Positions 38,319 through 38,801 of a stretch of DNA of 64,000 bases are shown here, piece by piece (position 1 is the stretch's first letter; every line of letters starts with the position of its first letter). Both the position numbers and the translations under genes were made by a program. Source of the stretch: Escherichia coli (GTDB lineage Bacteria; Pseudomonadota; Gammaproteobacteria; Enterobacterales; Enterobacteriaceae); NCBI RefSeq assembly GCF_041248615.1, contig NZ_CP158426.1. The stretch is one strand, 5' to 3'. Below the pieces are notes generated by a model. It saw only the letters and a list, made by a program, of their open reading frames with translations. It did no database searches and was not told the DNA's origin.

Positions 38319-38801
38319 ATGGCAAATATGAGTTATTTATCTTTGAGTGGAGAGACACAAGGGCTGATTTCAGCAGGTTGCTCAACGCTTGATTCTGTCG
38401 GAAACAAAGCACAGCCAGAACATAAAGATCAGATCATGGTTTATGCGTTAATGCATTCCATCTCAAGAAGTCAAAATGTCAATCATCATGAATTAATTAT
38501 CACCAAACCGGTTGATAAATCCTCACCATTGCTGGCAAAAGCACTTAGTGACAATGAAAAAATGGTAACATGTGAATTTATACTCTACCGAACCAGTAAA
38601 GCGGGTATTTACTAGCCTTATTATAAAATAAACCTGTCAAAAGCCCGAATATCAAGTATTGATTTTGTCACACCGCATGCTGTCCTGGAAAAAGAACTGG
38701 AGCCACAGGAGAGAATTGCCTTTATTTATGAAGATATTTCCTGGGAGCATACGTTAGCCGGTACGAATGCAATGAGTAAATGGCAGGATCGTGTACAGTA
38801 A
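38319..38801 (+). pseudogene. hcp paralog interrupted by an in-frame TAG stop at 38613..38615
   Basis: N-terminal 98 aa (MANMSYLSLSGETQGLISAGCSTLDSVGN...) align to Hcp; the same frame continues after the TAG (PYYKINLSKARISSIDFVTPHAVLEKELEPQERIAFIYEDISWEHTLAGTNAMSKWQDRVQ) and matches the Hcp C-terminus (IEWEHVKSGTSGADDWR in the intact copy). Confidence 0.75.

Follow-up and report, generated by a model that had tools for sequence, protein, structure and literature searches.

A recent amber mutation in the hcp gene closing the aspV-linked T6SS cluster of an Escherichia coli clone may separate a predicted Tme effector from its putative Hcp carrier

The 64,000-nucleotide stretch of Escherichia coli DNA analysed here (the window; RefSeq assembly GCF_041248615.1, contig NZ_CP158426.1) carries two hcp genes, one of which is interrupted by a stop codon within an otherwise continuous frame, raising the question of whether this gene has really been lost, how recently, and what a T6SS that has a second Hcp would lose with it. 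A preliminary description of the locus proposed that a recent nonsense mutation had inactivated this copy and may have uncoupled the downstream effector from its carrier. The interrupted gene and its stop codon lie at the following positions.

38319..38801, plus strand: hcp pseudogene of 160 codons (483 bp), broken at codon 99, identified by translation, profile match and PGAP annotation
38613..38615, plus strand: premature amber codon TAG, a C-to-T transition at 38613 in an ancestral CAG (Gln-99)

Translation of the interrupted hcp gives 98 residues, the TAG, a further 61 residues in the same frame and a natural TAA, just as had been read from the sequence beforehand, and a good Shine-Dalgarno sequence (AGGAG) is placed 5' of the ATG. 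With glutamine restored at codon 99 the product matches the TIGR03344 (TssD/Hcp) profile over residues 1-157 with a score of 204.5 bits, compared with a curated cut-off of 58.9 bits, and the two parts together, at 160 amino acids, do have the length of a normal Hcp. The best solved relative is Hcp3 of Pseudomonas aeruginosa (PDB code 3HE1), to which residues 1-158 align with E=2e-23, and PF05638 is recorded on the 98-residue fragment. Because the profile and the 3HE1 alignment run across the whole length, both halves are Hcp in a single frame, a match far beyond chance, and the frame downstream of the stop is as Hcp-like as the preliminary description supposed. The gene is part of a complete T6SS cluster and comes directly after tssM and a VasL-domain gene. 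The uninterrupted frame of about 160 amino acids that characterizes the family is broken by the TAG at codon 99, and 38319..38801 is a pseudogene of the Hcp/TssD family and not a functional member. RefSeq/PGAP gives the same label (R2K29_RS20805, an Hcp-family pseudogene with an internal stop), so that the interruption is already known from the public annotation. The product is shortened from 18.0 to 10.8 kDa with the C-terminal 39% of the Hcp fold gone, and the single candidate for an in-frame restart after the TAG yields 9 amino acids. From general knowledge of the Hcp β-barrel and ring, the remaining 98-residue fragment would be expected to misfold and should form no hexameric rings.

The sense codon that the TAG replaced was sought, as the preliminary description had advised, by alignment to intact hcp genes (strains JCH8249 and NCCP15648) and is CAG (Gln). 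The intact JCH8249 allele differs from the pseudogene at one position, C to T at 38613, which converts CAG (Gln-99) to TAG. The intact protein, WP_000002621.1, is encoded on at least 1000 contigs, and the pseudogene is otherwise identical to this allele. The whole window is 100% identical to the chromosome of E. coli NRZ14408 (NZ_LT599825.1; window position = record position - 4,227,545), and a 111-bp probe centred on codon 99 finds a 100% match in one of 5,426 complete E. coli genomes, that of NRZ14408, with a 99.1% match (one mismatch) in 298 further complete genomes. A stop codon that is the sole change relative to so widespread an allele, present in a single complete genome, agrees with the proposal of a recent nonsense mutation rather than old decay. 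An exact look-up of the 98-residue sequence apparently returned many independent occurrences of the truncated product; these were rejected, as most of the contigs just end at codon 98 and any extra bases are the wild-type C or CA.

The surroundings of the gene were compared over 24.5 kb with the nearest complete genome, that of isolate 362, using two outgroups for polarity. Five SNPs are private to the window, two of them synonymous (protein accession unchanged), two missense (31404 in vasI and 39792 in ykfM, with the late, consecutive accessions WP_192459771.1 and WP_192459772.1) and one the nonsense change in hcp, compared with two private SNPs in isolate 362. These counts speak against mutator behaviour and against a faulty assembly; the divergence of the window is of the ordinary strain-level kind, with no wholesale decay.

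The remainder of the secretion apparatus is arranged in two divergently transcribed groups of genes, as listed.

18873..38295, plus strand: main T6SS cluster from tssB to the VasL-domain gene, all genes annotated as intact, with the hcp pseudogene next downstream
17658..18176, minus strand: intact second hcp encoding 172 amino acids (WP_001142958.1), next to vgrG and rhs, identified by annotation and profile match

The aspV-linked cluster comprises tssB, C, E, F, G, tagH, tssJ, K, L, H, vasI, tssA, tssM and the VasL-domain gene, and a divergent hcp-vgrG-rhs arm lies beside it. The two Hcp proteins of the window are 29% identical, and the hcp at 17658..18176 is an ancient paralog rather than a recent duplicate. 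With this paralog located, and with the single C-to-T change relative to JCH8249, the claim of a second hcp copy inactivated by one in-frame amber codon stands. A hexanucleotide repeated perfectly and in frame, (CAGAGT) x 11.7, occupies 29980..30049 within tssH/clpV; the array is 3-4 units longer in the window than in the three closest relatives, the ClpV repeat being variable between near-identical strains. The rhs end of the cluster is flanked by a copy of IS1397 and degraded ISAs1 transposase fragments (2446..3794 and 8672..10134), and the ISAs1 remnant is the endpoint of the K-12 deletion described below.

Directly downstream of the interrupted hcp are two intact genes followed by a hairpin.

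38845..39759, plus strand: predicted Tme-family membrane-disrupting T6SS effector (tme), intact, 304 amino acids, WP_000908071.1, assigned from a DVAK motif and a literature listing
39769..40236, plus strand: ykfM, intact, a 155-residue polytopic membrane protein, DUF1240-like and a predicted Tmi immunity protein, assigned from BLASTP and gene order
40349..40374, plus strand: terminator-like hairpin after ykfM, a consensus match only, such hairpins being no more numerous than expected by chance

The 34-kDa product of tme is the full-length form of the K-12 protein "YafU". Searches of Pfam, NCBIfam and PADLOC with the 304-residue protein and with YkfM gave no match. The Tme signature is a near-invariant DxxK, a transmembrane helix and a flanking aspartate (Fridman et al. 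2020, PMC7046647). In the 304-residue protein DVAK at residues 209-212 is followed by two glycine-rich hydrophobic helices (approximately 213-259) and then NEID, an arrangement equivalent to this DxxK-TM-D signature. Supplementary Data 5 of the same study lists WP_000908071.1 as a Tme with the domain at 122-277 (E=1.3e-37), together with the Hcp WP_000002621.1 43 bp upstream and a 155-residue protein with three transmembrane segments 9 bp downstream, and in the window hcp and ykfM lie at these same distances. The Tmi immunity family is composed of DUF1240 and DUF1240-like proteins (PMC7046647). YkfM has three hydrophobic segments and is related by BLASTP to Pfam-DUF1240 neighbours of Tme homologs (identities and E-values of 49%/E=4e-47, 28%/E=6e-8 and 23%/E=5e-5), placing it as DUF1240-like without direct Pfam membership and as the predicted Tmi immunity protein of Tme. 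The window thus resembles the described Tme/Tmi loci in the listed accession, the DxxK-TM-D motif, a DUF1240-like gene directly 3' and a T6SS gene directly 5', and the tme/ykfM pair is intact and already catalogued. The downstream effector of the preliminary description accordingly has a family, with WP_000908071.1 a predicted Tme membrane-disrupting effector whose secretion and depolarizing activity are likewise predictions. The validated members, Tme1 and Tme2, are proteins of Vibrio parahaemolyticus, with no Hcp dependence shown for either (PMC7046647). A literature search found no experiment on any E. coli Tme member and nothing linking ykfM to T6SS, and hits to yafU were authors' first names only.

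Homologs of Tme form a small family in which the association with hcp recurs. Salmonella enterica (63% identity) has hcp-tme followed by a DUF1240 gene and a second DUF1240 gene further downstream; in S. enterica GCA_027232745.1 these occupy 6926..7375 and 8555..9010 after the Tme homolog, suggesting duplicated or extra orphan immunity genes. Assembly ERR027323 (34% identity) has the order hcp-tme-DUF1240. In Rahnella bruchi (GCA_003614975.1, 6001..7937; 39% identity) an orphan tme-DUF1240 pair with a convergent hcp is placed among metabolic genes, and no T6SS core gene was found within 6 kb of this island. The conserved linkage in Salmonella, ERR027323 and Rahnella supports hcp-tme-tmi as a putative functional module with Hcp as a candidate Tme carrier, and carrying or chaperoning the adjacent Tme is the most likely specific function of the interrupted Hcp. 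The known type that this resembles is that of the P. aeruginosa effectors Tse1-3, which are Hcp-dependent cargo with Hcp1 acting as both chaperone and receptor. The likeness lies in an hcp placed directly 5' of a small effector gene (neither PAAR nor VgrG) and the matching immunity gene, and in a linkage of Hcp and effector that is kept even in the orphan island. The differences are that Tme is 34 kDa with two hydrophobic helices and that its binding to Hcp is a prediction; many known effectors carried in the Hcp lumen are smaller than Tme, which counts against carriage by Hcp.

Mutants of the equivalent genes have been described in other strains. The hcp1 gene of the porcine ExPEC strain PCN033 is at the same locus with the same 483-bp ORF, and its product, WP_000002621.1, is the exact ancestral sequence of the interrupted Hcp. 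Both PCN033 hcp1 and hcp2A of APEC TW-XM (Ma et al. 2018, PMC5874247) follow the VasL-domain gene and close the aspV-linked cluster, as here; the gene is intact in PCN033 and TW-XM, whereas codon 99 is amber in the window. In the APEC nomenclature hcp2A is the gene closing the vipA operon and hcp2B the one beside vgrG. The hcp at 17658..18176 corresponds by position and length to hcp2 of PCN033 (519 bp) and to hcp2B of APEC. The published hcp2A forward primer matches the window only at 3 mismatches and the published hcp2B primers find no match within 3 mismatches, so that the interrupted gene is equated with APEC hcp2A mainly from gene position together with one weak primer match. In PCN033 deletion of hcp1 (483 bp) left killing of E. 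coli K-12 W3110 largely intact, whereas deletion of hcp2 (519 bp) did reduce interbacterial killing (Peng et al. 2016, PMC4882540), and delivery of the effector XmtU by APEC depends on Hcp2B and VgrG2. The tme gene of PCN033 (NZ_CP006632.1, 243804..246056), in which the published hcp1/2/3 mutants were made, is split by an IS4-family ISVsa5-like element. K-12 MG1655 retains ykfM, and the W3110 prey is assumed to carry it as well. With tme split in the attacker and ykfM presumably present in the prey, the hcp1 competition result is mute on Tme delivery.

A sequencing or assembly error, with the gene intact in the living strain, was the alternative that the preliminary description itself had raised, and it draws on the presence of the TAG in one complete RefSeq genome and on the single-base mistakes that long-read assemblies do contain. 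At least four further assemblies or datasets, though, contain the same codon. GCA_014863425.1 is 100% identical to the window over 6.3 kb, and GCA_014863465.1 carries the TAG on a clearly different, indel-rich error profile with 20 gaps in 6.3 kb. A lineage-private variant of YkfM, used as a marker, led to three more TAG-bearing datasets, namely GCA_029445575.1, the Logan assembly SRR27379322 and GCA_023094725.1, the last of which lies one SNP from the window and is therefore a different isolate. The change at 38613 is moreover a substitution at a site with no homopolymer. Carried by these independent assemblies, the TAG is a real mutation passed on in a small clone to which the clinical isolate NRZ14408 belongs, and the chance that it is an error is slight indeed. 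(The TAG-bearing contig of SRR27379322 diverges completely from the window inside yafT, beyond its position 3815, which may reflect a rearrangement or insertion or be an artefact of the contig end.) A genuine TAG could nevertheless give useful full-length Hcp if a suppressor tRNA or efficient near-cognate decoding allowed ribosomes to pass it. Near-cognate reading of UAG by tRNA-Gln(CUG) would restore the ancestral glutamine, and a C following the stop codon, as here, makes a comparatively weak termination context. Against this, the basal level at which wild-type E. coli reads through UAG lies far under 1%, too low for a tube subunit, and the search for amber suppressors that had been suggested came back negative at the sites covered: glnV and glnX of NRZ14408 (metT-leuW-glnUW-metU-glnVX operon) both encode tRNA-Gln(CUG) with the wild-type CTG anticodon, which excludes a supE-type allele there, and no suppressor tRNA was found in the window. 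A supE probe run against all genomes had only laboratory K-12 strains among the matches listed. Useful readthrough is thus very unlikely.

The consequences of a real, unsuppressed stop could reach further than one paralog if the interrupted Hcp were the main tube subunit of the cluster, in which case the nonsense mutation would silence the whole T6SS. This is consistent with the position of the gene within the main structural operon, with the report that APEC Hcp2A and Hcp2B are both assembled and secreted in vivo, and with the recurrent decay of the cluster in ST2747 and K-12. It is opposed by the absence of a marked drop in K-12 killing on deletion of the gene for the identical protein in PCN033, where deletion of the vgrG-linked hcp lowered killing, by the dependence of XmtU delivery on the vgrG-linked Hcp2B, and by the intactness of all other T6SS genes in the window, making silencing of the machine unlikely. 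The same PCN033 and APEC results indicate that the vgrG-linked Hcp can sustain firing; with this Hcp, the rest of the apparatus and the Rhs effector intact, the machine has probably kept its ability to assemble and fire, and the loss would be limited to functions specific to the interrupted paralog. The premature stop might instead act mainly through polarity, with lower expression of tme and ykfM as the main consequence. Neither a terminator nor a strong promoter was found between hcp and tme, the only hairpin from hcp to the end of the operon being that after ykfM, and 229 nt are left untranslated after the TAG. This stretch is, on the other side, A/T-rich (C 17%, G 21%) and for the most part richer in G than in C, a poor Rho-loading sequence, and tme has its own ribosome-binding site (GGAGAG). 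Since the untranslated stretch is not C-rich and tme has this site, strong polarity would not be expected; the clone has also persisted with tme and ykfM intact, and polarity as the main effect is improbable.

The reading that we favour, with a probability of about 85%, is that the window carries a genuine recent loss-of-function allele of hcp in a machine that is probably still firing on its other Hcp, the role specific to this paralog, likely Tme delivery, being lost. A C-to-T transition would have turned Gln-99 (CAG) into an amber codon in the Hcp gene closing the main operon of the aspV-linked T6SS cluster, and the function lost would most likely be the chaperoning or carrying of the adjacent pore-forming or membrane-disrupting Tme effector; both tme and ykfM are intact, and their expression probably continues. 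A more specific version can be put forward tentatively, in which the end-of-cluster Hcp is a dedicated Tme carrier and the NRZ14408 clone is a natural "carrier-null, toxin- and immunity-intact" variant that has one toxin route disarmed but retains the Rhs route as well as self-protection, and that was perhaps selected in a hospital-adapted multidrug-resistant lineage. A dedicated carrier of this kind would be invisible to the published hcp1 mutant data, owing to the IS-disrupted tme of PCN033 and a K-12 prey that probably has ykfM.

Loss of the module has occurred elsewhere by other routes. The K-12 pseudogene "yafU" consists of the final 112 codons of tme, and the ykfM of K-12 is the immunity gene found here, with MG1655 (NC_000913.3, 238257..239378) matching the window at 39403..40236 and 9003..9282. 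The K-12 deletion extends from the ISAs1/yafF remnant to mid-tme and removed the entire T6SS together with the 5' two-thirds of tme, whereas in NRZ14408 a point mutation has taken away only this Hcp. The ykfM left intact in K-12 after deletion of the whole T6SS is an orphan Tmi immunity gene there. In O157:H7 genomes the match is confined to the first 53 query bases, the 3' end of the VasL-domain gene. The close relative ST2747 (NZ_CP007392.1) has internal stops in two genes, tssM and the vgrG-side hcp, and a frameshift in tssL, an independent decay of the same cluster. Module loss being recurrent in K-12, O157:H7 and ST2747, a lineage-specific nonsense allele is an ordinary event.

By itself the interrupted hcp carries little weight, adding a further lineage-specific pseudogene to a cluster whose degradation or deletion is frequent in E. 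coli. Its value is modest, as a natural single-base knockout in which the specificity of Hcp for Tme may be addressed, the E. coli Tme being a predicted toxin. The locus is also a reminder that yafU and ykfM would be what is left in K-12 of an hcp-tme-tmi module, the one a toxin remnant and the other an orphan immunity gene.
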